This document shows positions 35,921-63,001 of a stretch of DNA of 64,000 nt, piece after piece (position 1 is the first letter of the stretch; each line of letters begins with the position of its first letter). Below the pieces are notes generated by a model. That model saw only the letters and a program-made list of their open reading frames with translations, was not told the origin of the DNA and ran no database searches. This stretch comes from Spirochaetaceae bacterium. Lineage in GTDB: Bacteria > Spirochaetota > Spirochaetia > SZUA-6 > Bin103. The stretch is taken from positions 1,136 to 65,135 of the forward strand of contig JAPPGB010000047.1 in assembly GCA_028821475.1 (NCBI GenBank). Direction: 5' to 3'. The translations under genes were made by a program, and so were the position numbers.

Positions 35921-36792
35921 CAGACGCTGCCGCGCAGGCGGGGGTCGAGCAGGTCGCGCAGCGCGTCGCCGAACATGTTCAGACTGAACACGGTGATCGT
36001 CAGGCAAAGTCCCGGCCAGGCGGCCAGCCACGGCGCCCGCTCCATGTACTCACGTCCTTCCCGGCTGAGCAAGCCTCCCCAGCTCGGAACGGTGGGCGGC
36101 AGTCCAAACCCGAGGAAGCTCAGAGACGCCTCGGATATCATCACCCCGCCGATATTGATGCTGAACACGATGATTGCGACAGGCATGATATTGGGCAGGA
36201 CATGGCGCACGAACGCTCGCCACTTCGAGGCGCCAAGCGCCTCCGCGGCCTGAAAATAGAGATTCTCCTTGATGCCGACGACCGCGCCTCGCACCACCCG
36301 CGAGCCGCCGATGCCGCCGGCTATGCCCAGGACGACTATTATCTGCGTTACGCCGCGCCCGACCAGCGACATTATCGTCAACAGGATCAACAATCCCGGG
36401 AACGCCATCCAGGCATCGACGAATCTCTGCACGGCCAGGTCGAACTTGCCGCCGAGGAATCCGGACGTGCCCCCGATCAGGAGCGCCACCACGACATTGA
36501 TACTGGTGGCCGCCAGACCGACCGCTATCGACAGCCGGGCTCCGTAGATGACCCGGCTCAACAAGTCGCGCCCCAACTGGTCGGTGCCCAGCGGATGCCG
36601 GGCCGATGAGCCCTGCAGTCTGTCCCTGAGGTGCACTTCAAGGAAGCCGTAAGGGGCCAGAACATCGGCGAATACAGCCACGAGAATCAATAGCAATACG
36701 ACAATACCGCAACCGACACCGAGTGGCTGTTCCCTGACCATCCTGGCAACGAAATCAGCCAGCGCGGTACGCCTCCTGGTCGCTTCACGCAT
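35920..36792 (-). CDS. ABC transporter permease (DppC/OppC-like)
   Basis: Binding-protein-dependent permease fold with the EAAxxxGA region and the C-terminal MFGDALRDLLDPRLRGSV. Start overlaps the dppB stop (ATGCGTGA). Confidence 0.85.
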   Translation of the reverse strand: MREATRRRTALADFVARMVREQPLGVGCGIVVLLLILVAVFADVLAPYGFLEVHLRDRLQGSSARHPLGTDQLGRDLLSRVIYGARLSIAVGLAATSINVVVALLIGGTSGFLGGKFDLAVQRFVDAWMAFPGLLILLTIMSLVGRGVTQIIVVLGIAGGIGGSRVVRGAVVGIKENLYFQAAEALGASKWRAFVRHVLPNIMPVAIIVFSINIGGVMISEASLSFLGFGLPPTVPSWGGLLSREGREYMERAPWLAAWPGLCLTITVFSLNMFGDALRDLLDPRLRGSV

Positions 36793-39861: not shown

Positions 39862-39901
39862 TTGACCGAAGACCACATATGACACTATATGCGGTGTCAT
39901 G
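39862..39901 (+). promoter_or_regulatory. hicAB promoter/operator copy 1: TTGACC-N17-CTATAT with inverted repeat ATGACAC-N8-GTGTCAT overlapping -10 and start codon
   Basis: Read directly. An identical arrangement is present at 44974-45013 upstream of the second hicAB copy. Confidence 0.45.
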
Positions 39902-40306
39902 CCGGGGGTTGGACCGGGTGTCAACGCTGCCATCGTCTGGCTCAACGCGTATGCGTACAACATCACGGTGCGGGAGTGCGTCTTCGAAGGCGAACCACTG
40001 TTCGAGGCTCGCGTCAAGGAGCTGCCGGACGTTCGGGAATATGCGGAGTCCGCACAGGAAGCCTACGATCTGGCCATCGACACCATCGAGACGGCAGCCG
40101 GGATGTTTGCCGAGACCGGCCGGCCGTTCCCGCCCCCGACCAGCCCGCAGGATGAATTCAGCGGCCGCGTTACGCTGCGCATTCCCAGAAGCCTGCATCG
40201 TGCGCTGGCGAGCGCGGCCGAAGACGAGGGCGTGAGCCTCAACCAACACCTCGTCACGGCCCTGACCCGCCTACACGCGAGTGCCGGCGCCAAGCGGCAC
40301 GGATAG
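39899..40306 (+). CDS. hicB: HicB-family antitoxin fused in frame to the first 12 codons of hicA (hicA deleted)
   Basis: MPGVGPGVNAAI (hicA N-terminus) is joined to LNAYAYNITV...RIPRSLHRALASAAEDEGVSLNQHLVTAL (HicB C-terminal RHH-like). Apart from the deleted hicA segment and the altered junction (IVW here, M+MKR there), the HicB-coding part is identical to 45303-45680. Confidence 0.7.
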   Translation: MPGVGPGVNAAIVWLNAYAYNITVRECVFEGEPLFEARVKELPDVREYAESAQEAYDLAIDTIETAAGMFAETGRPFPPPTSPQDEFSGRVTLRIPRSLHRALASAAEDEGVSLNQHLVTALTRLHASAGAKRHG

Positions 40307-41632: not shown

Positions 41633-42106
41633 CTAATCGGCTGCGCCGGCGGACGGCTCCCGGTCACCGCCGGCCTGCTCCTGCCGTGCGGCAGCCGCCC
41701 GTTCGATATCCGCGGCGATGCGGGCGCACAGGCGCTGGATGCGGCGCGCGTCGGCCGCCGCCCCGCGAGCGCCGGCCGGCTCTTCGTCGTACTCGAAGTA
41801 GAACGCCGGCGCGCGTCGCTCGGCCAATCGCGCGGAGACGGCGTGCACGTCGGCCGCTTCCACCTCGCTCAGGGGCATCTGCCGGGCGGCAAGCGTAGCC
41901 ACGAACAGTTCGGCGGCGTCGTGCACCTTCGGATAGTCGATGCACAGGTAGGTGAGCACCGCCTTCAGTGCCAGCTCCACGACTTCCTGCGCGCGGCGCA
42001 CCGCGATGTTCCACGAACCGCGGCGCAGCGCGCCCTCCATCTCCGCGAGGTGCTCGCGCGACGCCGCCAGCAGTTTGCGGCCGCGCTCGCCGTTGCTCAT
42101 CGCCAA
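41633..42106 (-). CDS. HEPN domain protein (toxin of HEPN/MNT pair)
   Basis: 157 aa, AVRRAQEVVELALKAVL...DYPKVHDAAELF (KTHDL-type HEPN motif). Downstream of the MNT gene. Confidence 0.7.
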   Translation of the reverse strand: MAMSNGERGRKLLAASREHLAEMEGALRRGSWNIAVRRAQEVVELALKAVLTYLCIDYPKVHDAAELFVATLAARQMPLSEVEAADVHAVSARLAERRAPAFYFEYDEEPAGARGAAADARRIQRLCARIAADIERAAAARQEQAGGDREPSAGAAD

Positions 42107-42116
42107 ACCCGCATGA

Positions 42117-42656
42117 TCACAACTCGATCATCTCTCCGGGGCGCAGGTCGGGCTTGAGATCCCAGTACCACGAGCCGTCGGCCAACTCGATGCGCCGCGA
42201 CCCCAACTCGGCGAGCCGCCTCCGGAGCGCCGCCAGCTTGGCGTGCAGCACTTGACGCGGATCGAACAGAACGATGCCGTGGTGAGAGACGTCCAGCAGC
42301 AGCCACGGGGTGTCGACCAGCGCTGCTTCCGACCGGAACACCGGCATCGGGTTGGTGGGCACGCCACGCGCCTGCAACTCCGCCGTGAGCGGCGCAGCAC
42401 GCAGCGCCAACTCCACTTCGACGAAGCTGTCCGCGACGCGCTCGCCGTCGCCCCGATACACCAGGAACAGGTCGATGTCGCTCTCCGCTCGCGCCTCACC
42501 GCGAGCCACCGACCCGTAGAGCGCGACCGCGACCAGTCGCTCATCCAGCTCGGCGCCCAACCTGGCGAGCAAACAGTCGGTGAGCGGCTTGACCTCAGCA
42601 TAGCCGGACCTGCGCCCCGTGCCGCATCTCTCTGAAGATGCTTCCATTGCTGCCAT
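42117..42656 (-). CDS. Minimal nucleotidyltransferase (MNT) domain protein
   Basis: LYGSVARGEARAESDIDLFLV is the canonical GSxxRG...DIDL. Start uncertain (42656 or 42647; ORF open to 42770). Confidence 0.75.
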   Translation of the reverse strand: MAAMEASSERCGTGRRSGYAEVKPLTDCLLARLGAELDERLVAVALYGSVARGEARAESDIDLFLVYRGDGERVADSFVEVELALRAAPLTAELQARGVPTNPMPVFRSEAALVDTPWLLLDVSHHGIVLFDPRQVLHAKLAALRRRLAELGSRRIELADGSWYWDLKPDLRPGEMIEL

Positions 42657-42708
42657 GATAGCACATGCCACTACCCGGGAAGCCGGTCGGATGCGGCCAA
42701 CGTCCTGA

Positions 42709-42891
42709 TCAAACTCCGCGGTGGAGAGGCTTGGGCCGCTCGGCACGGCGGGCCAGGAAGTACTCGGCAACCACTGAGAGCTGCTCGATCACGAGCAGTT
42801 TGTCGCGCAACGGGAGTGCGCGGAACTCCTCCCGTTGGCGGCGGCGGTTGCCGGCAAACGTGACCACCCGCCAATCGTTCTCGTCAGCCAT
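42709..42891 (-). CDS. Small hypothetical protein
   Basis: 60 aa (MADENDWRVVTFAGNRRRQREEF...). Its ATG overlaps the stop of the upstream fragment (ATGGCTGA). No recognizable family. Confidence 0.3.
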   Translation of the reverse strand: MADENDWRVVTFAGNRRRQREEFRALPLRDKLLVIEQLSVVAEYFLARRAERPKPLHRGV

Positions 42892-45013: not shown

Positions 45014-45306
45014 CCGGGGGTTGGGCCGGGTGTCAACGCTGCCATCGCCTATCTGTCTACCGGCGCGCGTATTCGATGCGACGCGATGATCCGGTTGCTG
45101 ACCGGTCTCGGCTTTTCCGTCCGCGATGGCCGAAAGCAGGGCCACAAGGTCATCACCCACCGGGGCCTGGATGCCTTTACGTCGGCCGCCTTTCTTGCGG
45201 CCATGGCAAGAACCCGCAGGTCAAGCCGGTGTACGTGGCGAGTATCCGCTCGTTGCTCGCGTCCCATGCGGATGACTTGCAGAAACTGCCGGGAGGTCAG
45301 GAGTGA
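45011..45306 (+). pseudogene. hicA: HicA-family toxin gene requiring a frameshift
   Basis: Frame A reads MIRLLTGLGFSVRDGRKQGHKVITH (the HicA fold through the SHH-type motif). The C-terminal part (...GHGKNPQVKPVYVASIRSLLASH...QE*) is in a second frame ending in TGA, which overlaps the hicB start. Confidence 0.5.
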
Positions 45307-45680
45307 TGAAGAGGCTCAACGCGTATGCGTACAACATCACGGTGCGGGAGTGCGTGTTCGAAGGCGAACCACTGTTCGAGGCTCGCGTCAAGGAGCTGCC
45401 GGACGTTCGGGAATATGCGGAGTCCGCACAGGAAGCCTACGATCTGGCCATCGACACCATCGAGACGGCAGCCGGGATGTTTGCCGAGACCGGCCGGCCG
45501 TTCCCGCCCCCGACCAGCCCGCAGGATGAATTCAGCGGCCGCGTTACGCTGCGCATTCCCAGAAGCCTGCATCGTGCGCTGGCGAGCGCGGCCGAAGACG
45601 AGGGCGTGAGCCTCAACCAACACCTCGTCACGGCCCTGACCCGCCTACACGCGAGTGCGGGCGCCAAGCGGCACGGATAG
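45303..45680 (+). CDS. hicB: HicB-family antitoxin
   Basis: Identical protein to the hicB part of 39899-40306. C-terminal RIPRSLHRALASAAEDEGVSLNQHLVTALTR. Confidence 0.75.
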   Translation: MMKRLNAYAYNITVRECVFEGEPLFEARVKELPDVREYAESAQEAYDLAIDTIETAAGMFAETGRPFPPPTSPQDEFSGRVTLRIPRSLHRALASAAEDEGVSLNQHLVTALTRLHASAGAKRHG

Positions 45681-45735: not shown

Positions 45736-46689
45736 TCAACTCTGCGGGGCCGCGGCGTCGGCGCCGTAGCGGCCGAGGCGGCCGCGCAGGCGGGGGTCGA
45801 GCAGGTCGCGCACCGCGTCGCCGAACATGTTGAGGCTGTAGACGACCACGGTCAGGCACAGTCCCGGCCACAGCGCCAGGTGCGGCGCCATCTCCATGTA
45901 CTGCCGACCCTCGCGGCTCAGCATGCCGCCCCAGCTCGGTATGTCCGGCGGCAGTCCGAAGCCCAGGAAGCTCAGCGCCGCCTCCGACATGATCACCCCG
46001 CCGACGTTGATGCTGAAGATGATGATGATCGGCGCCGCGATGTTGGGCAGCACGTGGCGCAGCAGCGAGCGCCGGCGCGAGCTGCCGATCGCCTGCGCCG
46101 CCTGGAAGTAGACGTTCTCCTTGACCCCCAGCACCGCGCCGCGCACCACCCGCGAGGCGGGGATGCCGCCCGACACCCCGAGCACGATGATGATCTGCAG
46201 CATGCCACGGCCGGCAATCGACATGATGGTGAGCAGCAGCAGCAGCCCCGGGAACGCCATCCAGGCGTCGACGAAGCGCTGCGTCACCAGGTCCAGCCGG
46301 CCGCCGATGAAGCCGGTGGTACCGCCGATCAGCACCGCCACCACGACGGTGAGGGCGGTGGCGGCCAGCCCCACCGACAGCGACAGCCGCGCCCCGTGGA
46401 TGAGGCGGCTCAGCAGGTCGCGCCCGACGTGGTCGGTGCCCAGCAGGTACGCGGCCGAGGGGGCCTGCAGGCGGTCGCGCAGGTGGATCTCCTCGAAGCG
46501 GTAGGGCGCCAGCGAATCGGCGAAGATGCTCACCAGCACCAGGAGCAGGATGACGATGCCGCCGGCGGTGCCCAACGGCTGTTCACGGAGCAGCCGGGCG
46601 AAGAAACGCCGCGCTCCCGCGTGCCCGGGCGCAGCCGCCCCGGTGGCCGGCTCGGCGCCGGCCGGAGTGATCTGTGATACGTCACCCAC
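45736..46689 (-). CDS. DppC/OppC-like ABC permease, paralog copy 2
   Basis: 317 aa, about 75% identical to 35920-36792. GTG start with an AGGAGAG RBS. The C-terminus is altered (DPRLRGRLGRYGADAAAPQS), with a 14-nt tandem duplication (TATCAACTCTGCGGGG x2) just 3' of it. Confidence 0.75.
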   Translation of the reverse strand: MGDVSQITPAGAEPATGAAAPGHAGARRFFARLLREQPLGTAGGIVILLLVLVSIFADSLAPYRFEEIHLRDRLQAPSAAYLLGTDHVGRDLLSRLIHGARLSLSVGLAATALTVVVAVLIGGTTGFIGGRLDLVTQRFVDAWMAFPGLLLLLTIMSIAGRGMLQIIIVLGVSGGIPASRVVRGAVLGVKENVYFQAAQAIGSSRRRSLLRHVLPNIAAPIIIIFSINVGGVIMSEAALSFLGFGLPPDIPSWGGMLSREGRQYMEMAPHLALWPGLCLTVVVYSLNMFGDAVRDLLDPRLRGRLGRYGADAAAPQS

Positions 46690-46710: not shown

Positions 46711-46800
46711 CCTGGTCCGAAGAAGCCGGCCGGCAGCCGATGCTTCGGCATCGGTATTCATCGTCTTCGATGTCACGGAGTGACCGTACAGACTCATTCG
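46711..46800 (-). promoter_or_regulatory. Conserved ~90-nt two-hairpin leader element, copy A (5' of the dppC paralog)
   Basis: In transcript sense: GGUCAC-ucc-GUGAC hairpin, then gacgaugaaua, then CCGAUGC-cgaa-GCAUCGG hairpin, then GCCGGCCGGC, then the RBS. About 85% identical to 61432-61520. Confidence 0.4.
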
Positions 46801-46949
46801 TAGCGGATCCGCGGGTCCAGCGACGCGTACAGCAGGTCGGTCAGCAGGTTGACCGCCGCCACCACCGTGGCGAAGAACAGGTTCACCGCCGACACCACCG
46901 GGTAGTCGCGCTCGTTGAGCGCGTCCAGCATCAGCCCTCCGAGCCCCGG
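46794..46949 (-). pseudogene. 3' fragment of a DppB-like permease gene
   Basis: Encodes only ...ENIFNLPGLGGLMLDALNERDYPVVSAVNLFFATVVAAVNLLTDLLYASLDPRIRYE*. Sequence upstream is an out-of-frame dppC 3' end. Confidence 0.6.
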
Positions 46950-46965
46950 CAGGTTGAAGATGTTC

Positions 46966-47688
46966 TCAGACCTGCCTGGCGGCATCGGCATCGAGGCGTC
47001 CGCCGCCGCCGCGCAGCCGCGGGTCGAGCAGGTCGCGCACCGCGTCGCCGAACATGTTCGAACAGTACACGACAATCGTCAGGCACAGGCCCGGCCAGAC
47101 CGCCAGCATGGGCGCCACCTCCATGAACTTGCGCCCTTCCCGGCTGAGCAGACCTCCCCAGCTCGGCACGCCGATCGGCAGCCCGAACCCCAGGAAGCTC
47201 AAGCTGGCCTCACTCATGATCACCCCGCCGATGCTGATGCTGAATATGATGATCATGACCGGCATGATATTGGGCACGACGTGGCGCACCAGTGTCGCGG
47301 CGCCGCCGCTGCCGATCGCGGGGGCGGCCAGAAAGTAGTCATTCTCCTTGATGCCGATGACCGCCGCCCTGACTACTCTCGAGGTGCCGATTCCTCCCGC
47401 TATCCCCAGGACCAGTATTATCTGCAACACACCGCGTCCCGCTATCGACATCACGGTCAACAACATCAGCAGCCCCGGGAAAGCCATCCAGGCATCGACG
47501 AATCTCTGCACAGCCAGGTCCAGTCTCCCACCAAGGAATCCTGAAATGCCGCCGATCAGGGCAGCGACCACGACCGTGAGAGCGCTCGCCGCCAGGCCGA
47601 CAACTATGGAAAGACGAGCCCCTACGATGAGGCGGCTCAAGAAGTCCCGCCCTGCAGCCGGTCTGCCAGGTGCATTTCGGAGAGACAA
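46966..47688 (-). pseudogene. DppC-like permease paralog copy 3, N-terminally truncated with altered C-terminus
   Basis: Lacks the first about 50 codons including TM1. The C-terminus reads DPRLRGGGGRLDADAARQV instead of DPRLRGSV. Confidence 0.6.
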
Positions 47689-47807: not shown

Positions 47808-47960
47808 GTGGAGTTCAAGATAGATGAGAACCTGCACTCTGACGCGGCCGCCCTATTGCGGCGCCATGGTCACGACGCCGTAACGGTCTACGAGCAGCGC
47901 CTGCGCGGAGGAAGTGACGAGGAAGTCATTGGCGTCTGCCGACGTGAAGGACGTGCACTT
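47808..47960 (+). pseudogene. 5' fragment of a DUF5615 (PIN-like) gene
   Basis: GTG start. MEFKIDENLHSDAAALLRRHGHDAVTVYEQRLRGGSDEEVIGVCRREGRAL aligns with the DUF5615 N-terminus (MKLLFDQNLSPRL...), after which the frame decays. Confidence 0.45.
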
Positions 47961-48311
47961 CGGCGCCGGTCATCCTCGACGAGGAGCAGTAAGCGCCCGA
48001 CCTGCTGCCCTATATCAAGGAGAAGATCGACGCCAACCGCGCCACGAGGTAAAGCTGTCCGCGACGCGGCGCCCGGCCATGGCCGCCGCCATCAAGACGT
48101 TGCACGGCGATTTGTGCCGCGCGGCACTGCCTGGATACGTGGTTCATCACGGCGCAGCGCCGCCACGGCATCGATTCGCCCGGTTGGCCACAGATCGAGC
48201 TGCGTCGGCTGCGGGACGAGCGCCAGCTCCTCGCCGAAGACGCTGCTGCGGCTGCTGCGACCCGGCGGTTGGCGCTGATGGGTTGGATTGATATACGTTA
48301 CGTTGGTCGAC

Positions 48312-49481
48312 ATGAAGACAACGGAGCAGCGCTTGTTCACTCCCGGCGACGGCGCAACGCCGCCAGCCCTCACCGGACGCGAGCGGGAGGAGGCGGTGCT
48401 GACGCGGTGCCTGGGCGACCTGCTCAGTGGCCGGGCACCACCGCACAACGTTGTCCTGACCGGGCCGCGCGGTACCGGCAAGACGGTGCTGCTCAACTGG
48501 TTCGAGCGCACCTGCCGCGACCACGTATCGGACGTCGACGTGCTGAAACTGACCCCGGACGATATTCCGACCCGGGACGCGCTGATCGAGGTTCTGGCGC
48601 CGACGCCCAAGTTAGCGAAGCTGCTGCCCCGCAAGCTGGGCGTGGCAACGGTGGGCTCGGTCGAGTGGGCGCCGCCCGCCGGGGGCATGCGCAACCTGCG
48701 GGATGAGTTGACCGCCCGGTGCCGCAGGAAGCCGCTGGCGACGCTGGTCGATGAGGCGCACACACTCGACCTGGTGGTGGGAAGAGCGCTGCTCAACGCC
48801 AGTCAAAAGGTGCGTGCCGACGCGCCGTTTCTGCTGGTGCTGGCGGGCACGCCAGGGTTGGCTGCGCATCTCGGCGCCATGAATGCGTCCTTCTGGAGCC
48901 GCTTGGGAGAGGGGCGCCTGGGCATCGGCCTGCTGAGCGACGCGGCCGCCCGCGCCGCCCTGGTCGAGCCGCTGGCCGCCCACGACGAGGGCATCGACGC
49001 CGACGCCCTCGCCACGGTGGTCGACGACAGCCAGTGCTATCCCTACTTTATCCAACTCTGGGGCGAGGCCCTGTGGGAGCGGCATCTGACTACCGGCGCG
49101 ACCCAACTCACCATCGCCCACGCAACTGCCGCGCGGCCCGGCGTGACCGCCAGGATCACCGACTACTACGAGGATCGATACCTGGAGTTGGATCGATCCG
49201 GCTGGCTGGCCGTTGCCGAGCGCGTGGCCGACCGCTTTCACTCCACGCCGACGCTGACCTACGAGCAGTTGAAGTCCGCGGTCGCCGCCGGTCTCGCTGC
49301 GAACGCGGACCCGCAGCAGGTGCATGCAGCCCTGACCGCCCTGCAACGCCTGGGTTTCGTCTGGCGCCCGCCCGGCCAGCTTCCGCCGGTCCGCTACGAG
49401 CCCGGCATTCCCTCGCTCATGGCCTACGTACTCGACCATGCCGCACCGACGCATGGAGAAGCACTTCCCGGAACCAGATAG
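48312..49481 (+). CDS. AAA+ ATPase domain protein (AAA_16/archaeal-ATPase-like)
   Basis: Walker A LTGPRGTGKTVLL, preceded by a (F)TGREREEAVL motif. Start at the ATG at 48312 (ORF track opens at a TTG at 48288). Its 5' end is repeated at 50192 and 52935. Confidence 0.7.
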   Translation: MKTTEQRLFTPGDGATPPALTGREREEAVLTRCLGDLLSGRAPPHNVVLTGPRGTGKTVLLNWFERTCRDHVSDVDVLKLTPDDIPTRDALIEVLAPTPKLAKLLPRKLGVATVGSVEWAPPAGGMRNLRDELTARCRRKPLATLVDEAHTLDLVVGRALLNASQKVRADAPFLLVLAGTPGLAAHLGAMNASFWSRLGEGRLGIGLLSDAAARAALVEPLAAHDEGIDADALATVVDDSQCYPYFIQLWGEALWERHLTTGATQLTIAHATAARPGVTARITDYYEDRYLELDRSGWLAVAERVADRFHSTPTLTYEQLKSAVAAGLAANADPQQVHAALTALQRLGFVWRPPGQLPPVRYEPGIPSLMAYVLDHAAPTHGEALPGTR

Positions 49482-49629
49482 CTCTGCACTTCGGCCGCGT
49501 TCGGATCAGATCGCGAACCAGGGTCTGACGTCGATGCCGTGGCGGCGCTGGTGGCCGGCGCTGATCGGCGCGCCACTCACCCCGGGACGGCGGCGGCGTG
49601 CGCCGTAATCACGGAGCGACGGTGCCGAC

Positions 49630-49878
49630 TCACTCGTAGTGCGTCCACATTCGGAGCACCTTGACGACGCGCTCGCGTTCAAGGACCTGGTACACGAGGC
49701 GGTGCTGGATGTTGATCCGACGCGAACACGCTCCGGTCAGATCGCCAATCAGTTTCTCGAACGGTGGCGGGCTGCGCCAGGGATCCTCACGGAGCACCTG
49801 AAGGAGGCGCTCCACGTTCGTACGGAGCCCGGACGCAGCCACCTTCCGTGCGTCCTTTCGGGCTTGCCTGGTGAACAC
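49630..49878 (-). CDS. yoeB: YoeB/Txe family toxin
   Basis: ...LIGDLTGACSRRINIQHRLVYQVLERERVVKVLRMWTHYE. Confidence 0.8.
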   Translation of the reverse strand: MFTRQARKDARKVAASGLRTNVERLLQVLREDPWRSPPPFEKLIGDLTGACSRRINIQHRLVYQVLERERVVKVLRMWTHYE

Positions 49879-50191: not shown

Positions 50192-50250
50192 TGTCGATAT
50201 GAAGACGACGGAGCACGCCTGTTCACTCCCGGCGACGGCGCCGCGCCGTG
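50192..50250 (+). pseudogene. 5' fragment of the AAA ATPase gene (copy 2, about 17 codons)
   Basis: GTCGATATGAAGACGACGGAGCACGCCTGTTCACTCCCGGCGACGGCGCC matches the start of 48312-49481 and then runs into the 3' end of the opposite-strand PIN gene. Confidence 0.5.
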
Positions 50251-52076: not shown

Positions 52077-52912
52077 CAGCGGTACCCGACCCGCGGATCC
52101 AGAACGGCGTAGATCAGGTCGACCACCAGGTTGATTGCCATCACCGAGGCCGCGAACGTCAAGTTTACGCCGGAGACCACCGGGTAGTCGCGGTCGTTGA
52201 GCGCGTCCAGCATGAGGCGGCCGAGCCCCGGCAGACTGAAGATGCTCTCCATGATCACCGAGCCGCCGATCAGGATCGGCATCTGCAGGCCGATCAGCGT
52301 CACCACCGGGATCAGGGCGTTCTTGATCGCGTGTCTGACGATCACGACCTGCTCCTGCAGACCCTTGGACCAGGCGGTCCTGACGTAGTCCTGCCGGAGT
52401 ACCTCCAGCATCATGGTGCGCGTCATCCGCATCGTGGCCGCGGCCAGGTAGGTGCCCAGAATCAGGCTCGGCACGATGAACACGCCGATGCTGCCCAGCG
52501 GATCGTCGCGGAACGGCACCAGCGTCAACGGTGGCGACCACGCCCACCAGATGGCAGGGAAGGTCAGAATCAGGGTCGCCAGCCAGAAGTTGGGGGTGGC
52601 CAGGCCGATGATGGCGACCGACCGACCGACGTAGTCGGCGGCCGTATTGCGGCGCATCGCGGAGTAGATGCCGACCGGCAGCCCGATCAGCAACCCGATC
52701 ACGATCGCCATCACTCCCAGTTGGACGGTTGCCGGTAACCTGGCGAGTATCTTCTCCTCGACCCGCCAGTCGCCCAGGAGGGAATTGCCCAGCGTGCCGT
52801 GCAGGAAGATATCCCCCAGCCAGCGTCCATACTGCACGTAGATCGGCCGGTCCAGTCCCAACATCCGCTCCAGCTTTTCACGGTCTATATCGGGATCCAT
52901 GAAACTCGCCAT
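52076..52912 (-). pseudogene. DppB-like permease paralog, N-terminally truncated (lacks first ~43 codons)
   Basis: Begins MASFMDPDIDREKLERMLGLDRPIYVQYGRWLG, corresponding to residue about 43 onward of the intact DppB. TM1 is missing. The 5' end abuts AAA-ATPase fragment copy 3. Confidence 0.6.
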
Positions 52913-52934
52913 TTGCGCCGCCAACGCCTGGTCG

Positions 52935-53152
52935 ACATGAAGACAACAGAGCAGCGCCTGTTCACTCCCGGCGACGGCGCCACGCCGCCAGCCCTCACCG
53001 GACGCGAGCGGGAGGAGGCGGTGCTGACGCGGTGCCTGGGCGAACTGCTCGGCGGCCGGGCGCCACCGCACAACGTCGTCCTGACCGGGCCGCGCGGTAC
53101 CGGCAAGACGGTGCTGCTCAACTGGTCGAGCGCGCCTGCCGCGATTACGTAG
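52935..53152 (+). pseudogene. 5' fragment of the AAA ATPase gene (copy 3, about 70 codons, 1-nt deletion then divergence)
   Basis: About 93% identical to 48309-48520 up to AACTGGT-CGAGCGC (a single T is missing relative to copy 1). A stop follows after ...LLNWSSAPAAIT*. Confidence 0.6.
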
Positions 53153-60989: not shown

Positions 60990-61418
60990 TCACGACGCGT
61001 TTCCGCCCGCAGACGTGTCCAGAGGCGCGGGCGCCAGTGCGCTCTCGAATTGGCCTGTTGCCAGCAGCACGAGCGTGCATGCCTCCAGGTACGGAATGCC
61101 GTGCTCGTCGAGCGCCCGCTCCAACTGCTCCGACTCGGTGCCGGGGTTGAGGATGACCCGCCGCGGGCGGGCGGCGACGATGCCGTCGATCAACGGGACG
61201 ACGTGGCGCGGCCCGACGTACACGGTGAGGGTGTGCACCCGGCGCTGCAGCGCGCCCAGGCCGGGCACCACGGGCAATCCCTCTATTTCCTCGTGCGCAG
61301 GGTTGATCGGCACCACGCCGTAGCCGTGCTGCTGCAGGGCACGCACGGCGCGGTTGGCGTAGCGCTGCCGGTTGCGGCTGGCCCCGAGAACGGCGACCTG
61401 GTGATTGCTGGCTGCCAT
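60990..61418 (-). CDS. CoA-binding domain protein (COG1832)
   Basis: 142 aa, VAVLGASRN..RYANRAVRALQQHGYGVVPINP. Confidence 0.7.
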   Translation of the reverse strand: MAASNHQVAVLGASRNRQRYANRAVRALQQHGYGVVPINPAHEEIEGLPVVPGLGALQRRVHTLTVYVGPRHVVPLIDGIVAARPRRVILNPGTESEQLERALDEHGIPYLEACTLVLLATGQFESALAPAPLDTSAGGNAS

Positions 61419-61431
61419 GACTGCTTCCTAT

Positions 61432-61520
61432 GCCTGGTCCGGAAAAGCCGGCCGGCGGGCGATGCCTGAGCATCGGATTTCATCGTCTCCAAGTCACGGA
61501 GTGACCGTTCAGACTCGTTC
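61432..61520 (-). promoter_or_regulatory. Conserved ~90-nt two-hairpin leader element, copy B (5' of the CoA-binding/ggt operon)
   Basis: Same hairpin pair (GUCAC-ucc-GUGAC; CGAUGC-ucag-GCAUCG), GCCGGCCGGC palindrome and spacing as 46711-46800, ending about 15 nt before the AGGAAG RBS and ATG. Confidence 0.4.
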
Positions 61521-61705
61521 TCAATTGTACGCCGCCGGCCCCGCCCTGACCATGCCGACTGCGGTGTGAGCGTAACGAGCGTTTTCGTCCATGCTGCACC
61601 GTTGCACCGGTTCGGTCTCAGTGTACGGAGAGCAGGCTCCCGTGACCCGGGGCACGTCGCAGTGGACGATGGGGTGATCCGCATGGGGAGCCGCCTGCCG
61701 AGCCG

Positions 61706-63001
61706 TCAGCCGAAGTACTCGTTCCCGCGGCGGTCGGCCACCCGAGGATAGCGGATCAGGAAGCGGGTGATCTCGGCGAGCAGCTCTTGCTGCCGGGCGC
61801 GGTAGGCGGGATCGTCGTAACGGTTCGTCGCTTCCTCCGGGTCGTCGGCCAGGTCGTACAGTTCACACCTGTCATCGGCGTAGAAGTTCAGCTTCAGGCG
61901 CTCGGTGCGCGCCATCTGACCCTCCAGCAGCATCGCGTGCACGATCCGCCGATGCACGGAGTCGGCGTGCGCCACCACCGGGACAAGACTGCGCCCGGCC
62001 GGCGCCTGCAGGCCCTCGGGATGCGGCACGCCGAGGAGGTCGCAGATGGTCGGGAACAGGTCCACCATCTCGACAAGCTGCTGCCGGTCGGCGCCGGCGT
62101 GGGCGGCGCCCGGCAGGCGGATCACCAGCGGCACGCGGACCGACGCCTCGTACAGGTTGCCCATCTTGCCCGCCATGCCGTGCTCGCCGAGCTGGTCGCC
62201 ATGATCGGAGACCAGCACCACGAGAGTGTCGTCGAGCGTTGCCGTTGCGCGCAGCGTGGCGAGGATGCGACCGACGCAGTCGTCGAGCAGCGTGATCAGC
62301 GCCAGGTAGGTGGCGATCACCTGGCGGCGCGTCGCGTCGGGATAGGAGTCCCAGCGCCGGCGCGGGACGCCCTGGATCGACGGGCGCGCGGCGTCGTGGC
62401 GCACCGACGGCCGCGGCGGCAGCGTGATCCGGTCCGCGGAGTAGAGGCCGGCGTACTCGAGCGGCGGGTACAACGGAGGGTGGGGCGCGTAGATGCCCAC
62501 GAATGCCGCGAACGGTGCGCCGGCGGCGCGGCCGCGCAGGTAGTCGTCGAACTGCCGGCAGGCCACGAAGTCGCAATACTCCTCCGCCGGCCGGTCGAAC
62601 ACGCCGGTGATCCGCTCGGGATCTTCCAGGTAGCCGTGGTTCTCGAATCCCATGGTGGCCACCTTGTCGTAGGTGACCGACCGGAAGCCGCGGTTGACGC
62701 CGTGCGTCTTGCCGAACGCCACGCAGTCGAAGCCGTGCGCGGATAGGTGGTGGCCCAGATCGCGCTCGCCGGCCGGCAGGCGGTGGGTGTTGTGCAGCAC
62801 GCCGACCTGGTGCGGGTAGCGCCCGGTGATCAACGACGCTCGCGACGGCACGCACACCGGGTAGTTGGCGAAGCAGTTGCCGAACGACACCGCTTCGGCG
62901 CGCAGCGCGTCGATGTTCGGGGTGCGTGCGAACGGATAGTGTTCATGGAACAGCACGTCCTTGCGCGCTTCGTCGGACATGATCAGCACCAGGTTGGGCA
63001 T
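61706..63001 (-). CDS. Sulfatase (formylglycine-dependent arylsulfatase family)
   Basis: CVPSRASLITGRY signature (C-x-P-x-R). Start at M 63001 or 63022. Confidence 0.8.
   Translation of the reverse strand: MPNLVLIMSDEARKDVLFHEHYPFARTPNIDALRAEAVSFGNCFANYPVCVPSRASLITGRYPHQVGVLHNTHRLPAGERDLGHHLSAHGFDCVAFGKTHGVNRGFRSVTYDKVATMGFENHGYLEDPERITGVFDRPAEEYCDFVACRQFDDYLRGRAAGAPFAAFVGIYAPHPPLYPPLEYAGLYSADRITLPPRPSVRHDAARPSIQGVPRRRWDSYPDATRRQVIATYLALITLLDDCVGRILATLRATATLDDTLVVLVSDHGDQLGEHGMAGKMGNLYEASVRVPLVIRLPGAAHAGADRQQLVEMVDLFPTICDLLGVPHPEGLQAPAGRSLVPVVAHADSVHRRIVHAMLLEGQMARTERLKLNFYADDRCELYDLADDPEEATNRYDDPAYRARQQELLAEITRFLIRYPRVADRRGNEYFG

Follow-up and report, generated by a model that had tools for sequence, protein, structure and literature searches.

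Two apparent operon leaders of an uncultured spirochaete are probably copies of an 81-nt site-specific mobile repeat

Two sequences that look like leaders of unrelated genes in the window, i.e., the whole 64,000-nt stretch of Spirochaetaceae DNA analysed here, are probably copies of a dispersed, non-coding, non-autonomous and site-specific mobile repeat of 81 nt which is moved in trans (about 84 nt when the conserved target bases are counted). The element family is undescribed and of a general kind that is known. Its members are very small and constitute a new family of mobile elements, whose signature of insertion is unusually clean, i.e., exactly 81 nt, an asymmetric target with a 2-nt core and no inverted repeats, and whose hosts belong to a lineage known only from metagenomes. 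A false annotation lead is thereby removed: the conserved "leader" of two or three hairpins does not mark a regulon, and elements of this sort are best masked as repeats in the MAGs of the lineage.

The copies in the window and their host genes

The window contains two complete copies, both on the minus strand, and a fragment. With the boundaries taken from a covariance model, they and the hairpins of copy A are:

46712..46795, minus strand: copy A; cmsearch 104.9 bits, E 1.5e-18; matched span GAG...CCAG
46772..46784, minus strand: hairpin 1 of copy A, GUCAC-UCC-GUGAC; 98% of cells paired over 43 copies
46737..46754, minus strand: hairpin 2 of copy A, CCGAUGC-CGAA-GCAUCGG; 80% of cells paired
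46714..46731, minus strand: hairpin 3 of copy A, GGCCGG-CUUCU-UCGG-A-CC; 87.5% of cells paired; present in predicted folds
61434..61516, minus strand: copy B; cmsearch 98.6 bits; 83 nt matched; inserted DNA about 61434-61513
49608..49631, minus strand: partial third copy; first 24 nt only (GAGTCGGCACCGTCGCTCCGTGAT), 3 mismatches to the subfamily consensus

Copies A and B are identical at 71 of 84 aligned positions (84.5%). The similarity starts with GAGTCTG and stops with GGACCAG, and the flanks are unrelated. In 100 shuffles of the window (68% G+C) neither the 25-nt block of the 3' end nor the 24-nt block of the 5' end found a single match. The first-pass annotation, which had reported an element of about 90 nt shared by these two loci, is thus borne out. 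Its two hairpins are both present (GUCAC-UCC-GUGAC and CCGAUGC-loop-GCAUCG(G)); it missed a third one, GGCCGG-CUUYU-YCGG-A-CC, which was given as GCCGGCCGGC only. Hairpin 3 stops 2 nt short of the 3' end of the element. The partial copy is located directly 3' of the TGA stop of a yoeB-like toxin gene (Pfam YoeB_toxin), and according to shuffles no match is expected there by chance. We rejected the stretch 49548-49631 as a full degenerate copy; beyond the first 24 nt its similarity is no better than that of shuffles.

The adjoining genes and a promoter-like sequence are:

45736..46689, minus strand: dppC-like permease gene, the host gene downstream of copy A; Pfam BPD_transp_1 and OppC_N
46794..46966, minus strand: dppB remnant, last ~55 codons, upstream of copy A; Pfam BPD_transp_1, profile positions 129-183 only
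60990..61418, minus strand: CoA-binding protein gene, first in the operon downstream of copy B; Pfam CoA_binding_2; gene calls in L001
59218-60978, minus strand: ggt, a host gene after the CoA-binding gene; Pfam G_glu_transpept
61524..61552, minus strand: promoter-like TGGTCA-17-TACAAT of the CoA-binding/ggt operon; sole sigma-70-like match in 61300-61750

At the 5' end of copy A the TGA at 46794-46796 is the stop codon of the dppB fragment. Copy A has an ortholog in MAG CBDBOV01, the closest relative of the window organism (L015:133-216; flanks 99% identical), and there the order dppB-element-dppC is intact. The window itself is rearranged at this point. A 5'-truncated dppC-like ORF (46966-47688) precedes the dppB remnant, which follows its stop directly, and at the deletion junction (window 46964-46967) position L015:388 is joined to 4604 of CBDBOV01 (BLAST). 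About 4.2 kb of CBDBOV01 have no counterpart here; they comprise most of dppB, another copy of the element and the genes of a solute-binding protein and an AAA ATPase. The earlier assignment of the element to a dppB/dppC junction holds for L015 with its intact dppB, whereas the window has kept only the last ~55 codons of that gene. At the paralogous dppB/dppC junctions a 4-nt ATGA overlap had been claimed; by reading of the sequence we find 8 nt (36785-36792) and 1 nt (TGATG near 52078) instead. As empty sites these paralogous junctions are too diverged and were set aside.

The surroundings of copy A have further peculiarities. An AAA_16/AAA_22 ATPase gene at 48288-49481 is 87% identical to a differently placed gene of CBDBOV01 (L015:3370-4599), and pieces 88-90% identical to it are found elsewhere in the window (52929-53144 and 50193-50248), which suggests another mobile or duplicated module. 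Between 39899 and 50000, toxin-antitoxin-type genes are densely interleaved with three paralogous sets of dpp permease genes. The toxin-antitoxin-type run comprises:

39899-40306 and 45303-45680: HicB
41633-42106: HEPN, with a nucleotidyltransferase at 42117-42770
47808-48278: DUF5615/PIN-like gene
49630-49878: YoeB

Copy B separates the promoter-like -10 box from the start codon (ATG) of the CoA-binding gene. The motif TGGTCA-17-TACAAT is outside of the copy and is kept in L054, L055 and L057, all of which lack the element; this putative promoter belongs to the locus and not to the element. A search of both window copies for a promoter or terminator consensus inside the element was negative. 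The notion of a mobile promoter cassette finds no support in these observations. With copy B the CoA-binding/ggt operon would have a 5' UTR of about 100 nt with three hairpins, compared with about 10 nt before the insertion, and copy A would widen the dppB/dppC spacer. At both copies the Shine-Dalgarno sequence and the start codon are 3' of the last hairpin. Because they remain outside the hairpins, the insertions look tolerated and not regulatory, i.e., expression of the host genes is probably not under their control.

The repeat family and its target

One genome per species, 185,579 species in all, was scanned with the pattern GGTCACNNNGTGAC-N(1-8)-GACGATGAA. The scan returned 49 loci. Thirty-five of them carry the whole element (36 copies), all in MAGs of the Spirochaetia/Spirochaetales/Spirochaetaceae; the remaining 14 fit nothing but the pattern, by chance. 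From the 36 copies we built a covariance model, which was run over these loci and the window and identified 43 copies from eight Spirochaetia MAG species, at least 25 of them in CBDBOV01. As far as searched, the element is confined to a lineage of high-G+C uncultured Spirochaetia. Copies within one genome form subfamilies which are up to 99% identical, and in every copy similarity ends sharply at the element borders. The consensus reads GAG TCTGTAC GGTCAC TCC GTGAC AnGGAAGACGATGAAnA CCGATGC Cnnn GCATCG CCCGCC GGCCGG CTTTT TCGGACC AG. The first-pass annotation had suggested a genome-wide search for further copies as a check; with more copies found the outcome is the opposite of the one named as refuting. 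It had also suggested Rfam. No family of Rfam 15 matched anywhere in the window at the gathering score, and copy A alone, at E up to 10, returned only noise. A blastn search of PLSDB plasmids gave only short chance matches in Alphaproteobacteria, a text search of the literature for the element sequence no match, and a search of JGI metagenomes for a 3'-end pattern a single unrelated contig. This contig (L061:434-456) has a perfectly matching stretch of 23 nt (GCCGGCCGGCTTCTTCGGACCAG) in common with the element 3' end and nothing else.

Two loci deserve separate mention. In L006 (2814-2996, minus strand) an intact copy (2915-2996) is positioned 2 nt upstream of a degenerate copy (2814-2912), the sole adjacent pair which we have seen; in the degenerate copy hairpin 1 is GUCGU/ACGAC with both pairs compensated. 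In L062 (1-56) a metagenome contig starts inside the element at about position 38, illustrating how the repeat breaks short-read assemblies.

A duplication or gene conversion of one operon leader within a rearranged region, i.e., an event without dedicated mobility, might be considered since the region of copy A is indeed rearranged, with its 4.2-kb deletion relative to CBDBOV01, three sets of dpp paralogs and duplicated ATPase fragments. It can hardly account, however, for about 40 further copies with unrelated flanks in eight species, for a similarity which stops sharply at the element ends in every copy, or for exact 81-nt insertions at unrelated loci. The census and the empty sites already contradict such a local origin, and its probability is next to nil.

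Three comparisons of filled and empty sites with sister genomes demonstrate insertion, two of them exact to the base. In both exact pairs 81 nt are inserted, AG is found on both sides, and the target (T)G-AG-RGCA is already there in the empty site. The first pair is L048 versus L059/L060. The empty site ..AAGCCGGAGG-AG-GGCACCGAC.. (CCGGAGG-AG-GGCACC) becomes ..CCGGAGG-AG-TCTGTACGG...CGGGCA-AG-GGCACCGAC.. in the filled one, i.e., 81 nt extra. Here the element (L048:1205-1288, minus strand) is in frame inside an 851-codon vanadium-haloperoxidase-like gene and adds 27 residues (SVRSLRDLEDDESRHPSITRRPAFSGK), which are missing from the close homologs P0122, P0161 and P0121 as well as from distant ones. 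At least one insertion has, therefore, enlarged an enzyme. In P0123, another homolog, this loop contains about 45 inserted residues of unrelated sequence; thus the site in L048 appears to be a permissive surface loop. The second exact pair is L014 versus L064, in which the element is inserted into a 15-nt spacer between two conserved genes. The contiguous GAGAGCAGCG of L064 is split in L014 as GAG[TCTG...GGACCAG]AGCAGCG. By analogy, the inserted DNA of copy A would be 46712-46792 (81 nt, TCTG...CCAG) and its 5' GAG would be target sequence.

The third comparison concerns copy B. Orthologous CoA-binding/ggt operons lack the element in L054 (93% aa identity), L055/L056 (86%), L057 (80%) and L058 (77%). 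The relatives at 93%, 86% and 80% have kept GGCATGG(T/C)CA-N17-TACAAT, followed by 7-12 nt and the ATG; in L058, the most distant one, the sequence has diverged at the promoter-like site. The difference between filled and empty site amounts to 81 plus about 14 nt, and this pair is not exact because the species have diverged.

The flanks of the 36 copies are in agreement with the exact pairs. On the left we count T in 24, G in 36, A in 34 and G in 35 of 36 copies; on the right G in 21, then G/C, C/A, A in 19 and C in 20 of 36. As these bases pre-exist in empty sites, the left G and the right RGCA are parts of the target and not ends of the element. Clearly the element chooses a specific asymmetric target, whose left side reads (T)G-AG and whose right side reads RGCA(C). 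The 2-nt AG repeat is seen in the two exact pairs, in each of which a 2-nt match has a chance of about 1-in-16, and the flanking AG could be a 2-bp crossover core or could be fortuitous. Equally, an HUH-type element with AG at the end of either cleavage site could leave this pattern, and nothing would have been duplicated. A six-bp AATGAG repeat around copy A was rejected as a target site duplication (TSD); it is present in no other copy, and the exact pairs show only AG.

The target explains why the copies resemble leaders. It contains TGA-G, and many copies accordingly start at the stop codon of the upstream gene, in sense orientation and in short intercistronic spacers. For at least nine copies the 5' end of the element overlaps with, or directly adjoins, the stop codon of the upstream gene, e.g., at copy A, the yoeB fragment, a RES-toxin gene, L033, L023 and L044. 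According to gene calls by a crude method based on GC3, the upstream neighbour has the orientation of the element in 22 cases versus 8, and 11 copies are sense to both neighbours versus 3 which are antisense to both. This bias would follow from an asymmetric target which contains a stop codon; a role at the RNA level could cause it as well. By virtue of the TGA in its target the element repeatedly remodels operon junctions and 5' UTRs.

Pairing of the stems and the question of a regulatory RNA

The hairpins do carry a signal. In divergent copies hairpin 1 shows compensatory changes, twice from AU to GC and once from CG to UA. Hairpin 2 has the variants CGACGC/GCGUCG in L020 and L047 and many A-C mismatches. 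Eight pairs are changed on both sides versus 2.7 in shuffles, and on several measures the paired positions exceed all 500 shuffles, figures which are to be read in view of the fact that the copies are related by descent. Some structural constraint on the element exists; the covariation of the three stems is modest. The mismatches in the stems comprise 18 G-U and 26 A-C. G-U pairs are, therefore, not in excess, and nothing points to folding of the sense RNA in particular. The folding energy of the two window copies is ordinary compared with shuffles (z of -0.46 and -0.44). An alignment of copies had been recommended in the first-pass annotation as a check for covarying stems; what it delivers is modest covariation and no asymmetry between strands.

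Two further observations concern the fold. GCAUCG (element positions 54-59) can pair with either of two CGAUG, at positions 33-37 or 44-48 (46737-46763 in copy A), and RNAalifold favoured its pairing with the linker over hairpin 2. Pairing of the 5' and 3' termini and a GUCU/AGAC pairing were rejected; on inspection they are not conserved across copies.

Could the element be a cis-acting structured RNA, i.e., a leader, a riboswitch-like sensor or a processing/stability element, which was taken up many times and which selection maintains for what it does to the adjoining genes? Three hairpins and an unpaired, conserved linker GACGAUGAA, the eight two-sided changes, the two alternative partners of GCAUCG, the preference for sense orientation and the short spacers to start codons (10-22 nt in at least five copies) are compatible with this view. 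We nevertheless consider it highly improbable. Rfam contains no corresponding family, the folding energy does not surpass that of shuffles and the G-U count does not surpass that of A-C. Three to five copies are antisense to both neighbours and the copy in L048 is inside a coding sequence. The orthologous operons of sister species do without the element, and an identity of up to 99% between copies of one genome indicates recent amplification and not an old conserved motif. The genes next to the copies are functionally unrelated: dipeptide permease, CoA-binding/ggt, acetyl-xylan esterase, branched-chain amino-acid permease, a pterin-binding enzyme, SAICAR synthetase, a Rieske protein, a RES toxin and a DUF222-HNH gene. 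Judged from these neighbourhoods the element is no regulon motif, and nothing in the sequences indicates that it regulates adjoining genes. The suggestion of a cis-regulatory RNA motif, made when only the two copies were in view, is not supported in view of unrelated neighbours, occurrence in both orientations, a copy in a CDS and orthologous leaders without the element.

A leader peptide or small ORF was rejected too. Copy A does have an ORF, which begins with the ATGA at the end of dppB and extends to a TGA in front of dppC, but the linker varies by 1-2 nt among copies and no frame is conserved.

Relation to known mobile systems and the possible mode of movement

What remains is a mobile repeat, and its anatomy allows a proposal about movement. 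Terminal inverted repeats (TIRs) are absent: the 5'-terminal 30 nt and the reverse complement of the 3'-terminal 30 nt reach a score of 4 in their best local alignment, the mean of shuffles being 5.0. From the exact 81-nt unit, AG on both sides, a target read on two sides, the lack of TIRs and a fixed polarity we infer a recombinase which acts in trans at a 2-bp core. Such an enzyme, encoded elsewhere, would exchange strands at the core and would read the sequence on both sides of it. An IS110-type bridge-RNA-guided enzyme or a serine recombinase would be the candidates; serine recombinases use 2-bp cores. The three hairpins would then be recognition or folding features for the mobilising machinery and not a regulatory RNA. 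Which enzyme moves the element is the interesting point. Should it be an RNA-guided or another 2-bp-core recombinase, the copies would constitute a natural catalogue of donor/target pairs.

Within approximately 8 kb of flanking sequence of the copies and among the scanned ORFs of the window we found neither a recombinase or transposase gene nor a longer parent with the same ends. A Pfam scan of the ORFs in low-GC3 gaps beside the copies and in the window detected toxin-antitoxin, ATPase and solute-binding genes and no transposase. A longer parent element was also sought via the 5' end (LE), and all pattern matches turned out to be complete short copies.

Among known systems the insertion anatomy of the element most resembles IS110-type site-specific insertion, a likeness inferred from the insertion site only. 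IS110 elements have no TIRs and insert sequence-specifically around a short core (PMC11208160). The IS110/IS1111 group shares with our element the absence of TIRs, a target read on both sides of a 2-nt core that flanks the insertion, and an orientation fixed by the asymmetry of the core. Unlike these elements, ours has 81 nt, encodes no recombinase and nothing of the size of a bridge RNA, and the flanks and scanned window ORFs contained no IS110-type gene whose ends match. IS110 recombination needs only a minimal donor around the core if the bridge RNA comes in trans, and 22 bp of donor are then enough (PMC11208160). Tentatively, the element might be a naturally occurring minimal donor and nothing else, which hitch-hikes on a recombinase of the RNA-guided (IS110-type bridge) kind or on another one with a 2-bp core. 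Apart from the donor junction (…CGGACC-AG-TCTGTACGG…) its 81 nt would contain little, and its insertion in trans would take place at TG-AG-RGCA. The length is a multiple of three and two of the three sense frames have no stop codon; if the donor-only proposal were true, these properties would let the element colonise coding sequences as well as operon junctions. To our knowledge, no non-autonomous derivative of this IS110-type bridge or 2-bp-core mode of transposition has been described.

Alternatively, the same mobile repeat may move as single-stranded DNA by an HUH (Y1) transposase, either like a PATE of IS200/IS605 or like a REP served by a RAYT. Insertion would occur 3' of TGAG without target duplication, and the subterminal hairpins would be binding sites of the transposase. 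We regard this alternative, in both its enzyme and its mode of insertion, as unlikely. It does agree with a lack of TIRs, with the strongly conserved tetranucleotide (T)GAG as a feature of the 5' flank only, with hairpins 9 nt from the left and 2 nt from the right end, with the conserved 3' terminus CCAG and with the strand-specific arrangement. Compensated stems without a bias of G-U over A-C are as expected of DNA hairpins. Yet IS200/IS605 TnpA binds two similar imperfect palindromes, and the left and right hairpins of the element are unlike in sequence and shape. Further, the right flank RGCA[C] is also conserved and is target-derived in both exact pairs, which HUH transposition does not predict, and the surroundings of the copies showed neither a Y1 transposase gene nor a RAYT gene. 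The same features delimit the element from the known families of this type. With IS200/IS605 PATEs it has in common a fixed 5' flank, (T)GAG, and subterminal hairpins; these are dissimilar and the right flank is conserved as well. Like REP/REPIN-RAYT sequences and PATEs it is a hairpin-containing intergenic repeat without TIRs and apparently without TSDs, with a conserved flanking tetranucleotide and often in operons. It differs in being a single 81-nt unit with three dissimilar hairpins and not a 20-40-nt palindrome or an inverted pair of such; its right flank is conserved, it has no GTAG or CGTC tag, and neither RAYT nor TnpA was seen in the flanks or among the ORFs of the window.

Returning to a mobile repeat moved by a recombinase in trans, other small repeats share individual habits with it. 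The first-pass annotation had thought of a MITE-like mobile cassette. Mobility is upheld by many dispersed copies and their absence at orthologous sites of sister species; the assignment to MITEs is not, given no TIRs and a flanking repeat of 2 nt. In common with MITEs the element is small, non-coding, multi-copy, non-autonomous and mostly intergenic, differs in presence and absence between genomes and can alter UTRs. Unlike them it has a strict asymmetric target and, in the exact pairs, a flanking repeat of only 2 nt where a TSD typical of a family would be longer, and no parent IS was found. MIRUs are units of 40-100 bp in a high-G+C genome; they occupy intercistronic spacers of operons, have the same orientation as the genes and directly adjoin stop and start codons. 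The preference of our element for operon junctions is reminiscent of them. MIRUs, however, form tandem arrays with small ORFs which preserve translational coupling, whereas copies of the element are single save for the adjacent pair in L006, and no frame is conserved. The RPEs of Rickettsia are short repeats in frame inside protein genes, to which they add a peptide segment (PMC10969869). The element resembles them in a length of 3n and in the in-frame copy of L048. Sequence and host are unrelated, RPEs are about 150 bp long, and nearly half of them are intragenic compared with one copy here.

Finally, a 2.23-kb repeat was examined as a parent. It occurs, 97% identical, at three places in CBDBOV01 (L012:2623-4854, L045:4765-6993 and, in reverse, L011:126-2357). 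It has imperfect TIRs of ~17 bp (CAGGRCKATCCCAYGCT), 7-8-bp flanking direct repeats in two of the three copies, and a single ORF with DUF222 and a weak HNH match only, i.e., it is IS-like without a recognised transposase domain. A copy of the 81-nt element is carried in its 5' untranslated part. The three element copies are inside this DUF222-HNH unit but 113 nt from its end; hence they are passengers and not deletion derivatives, and the unit was rejected as parent.
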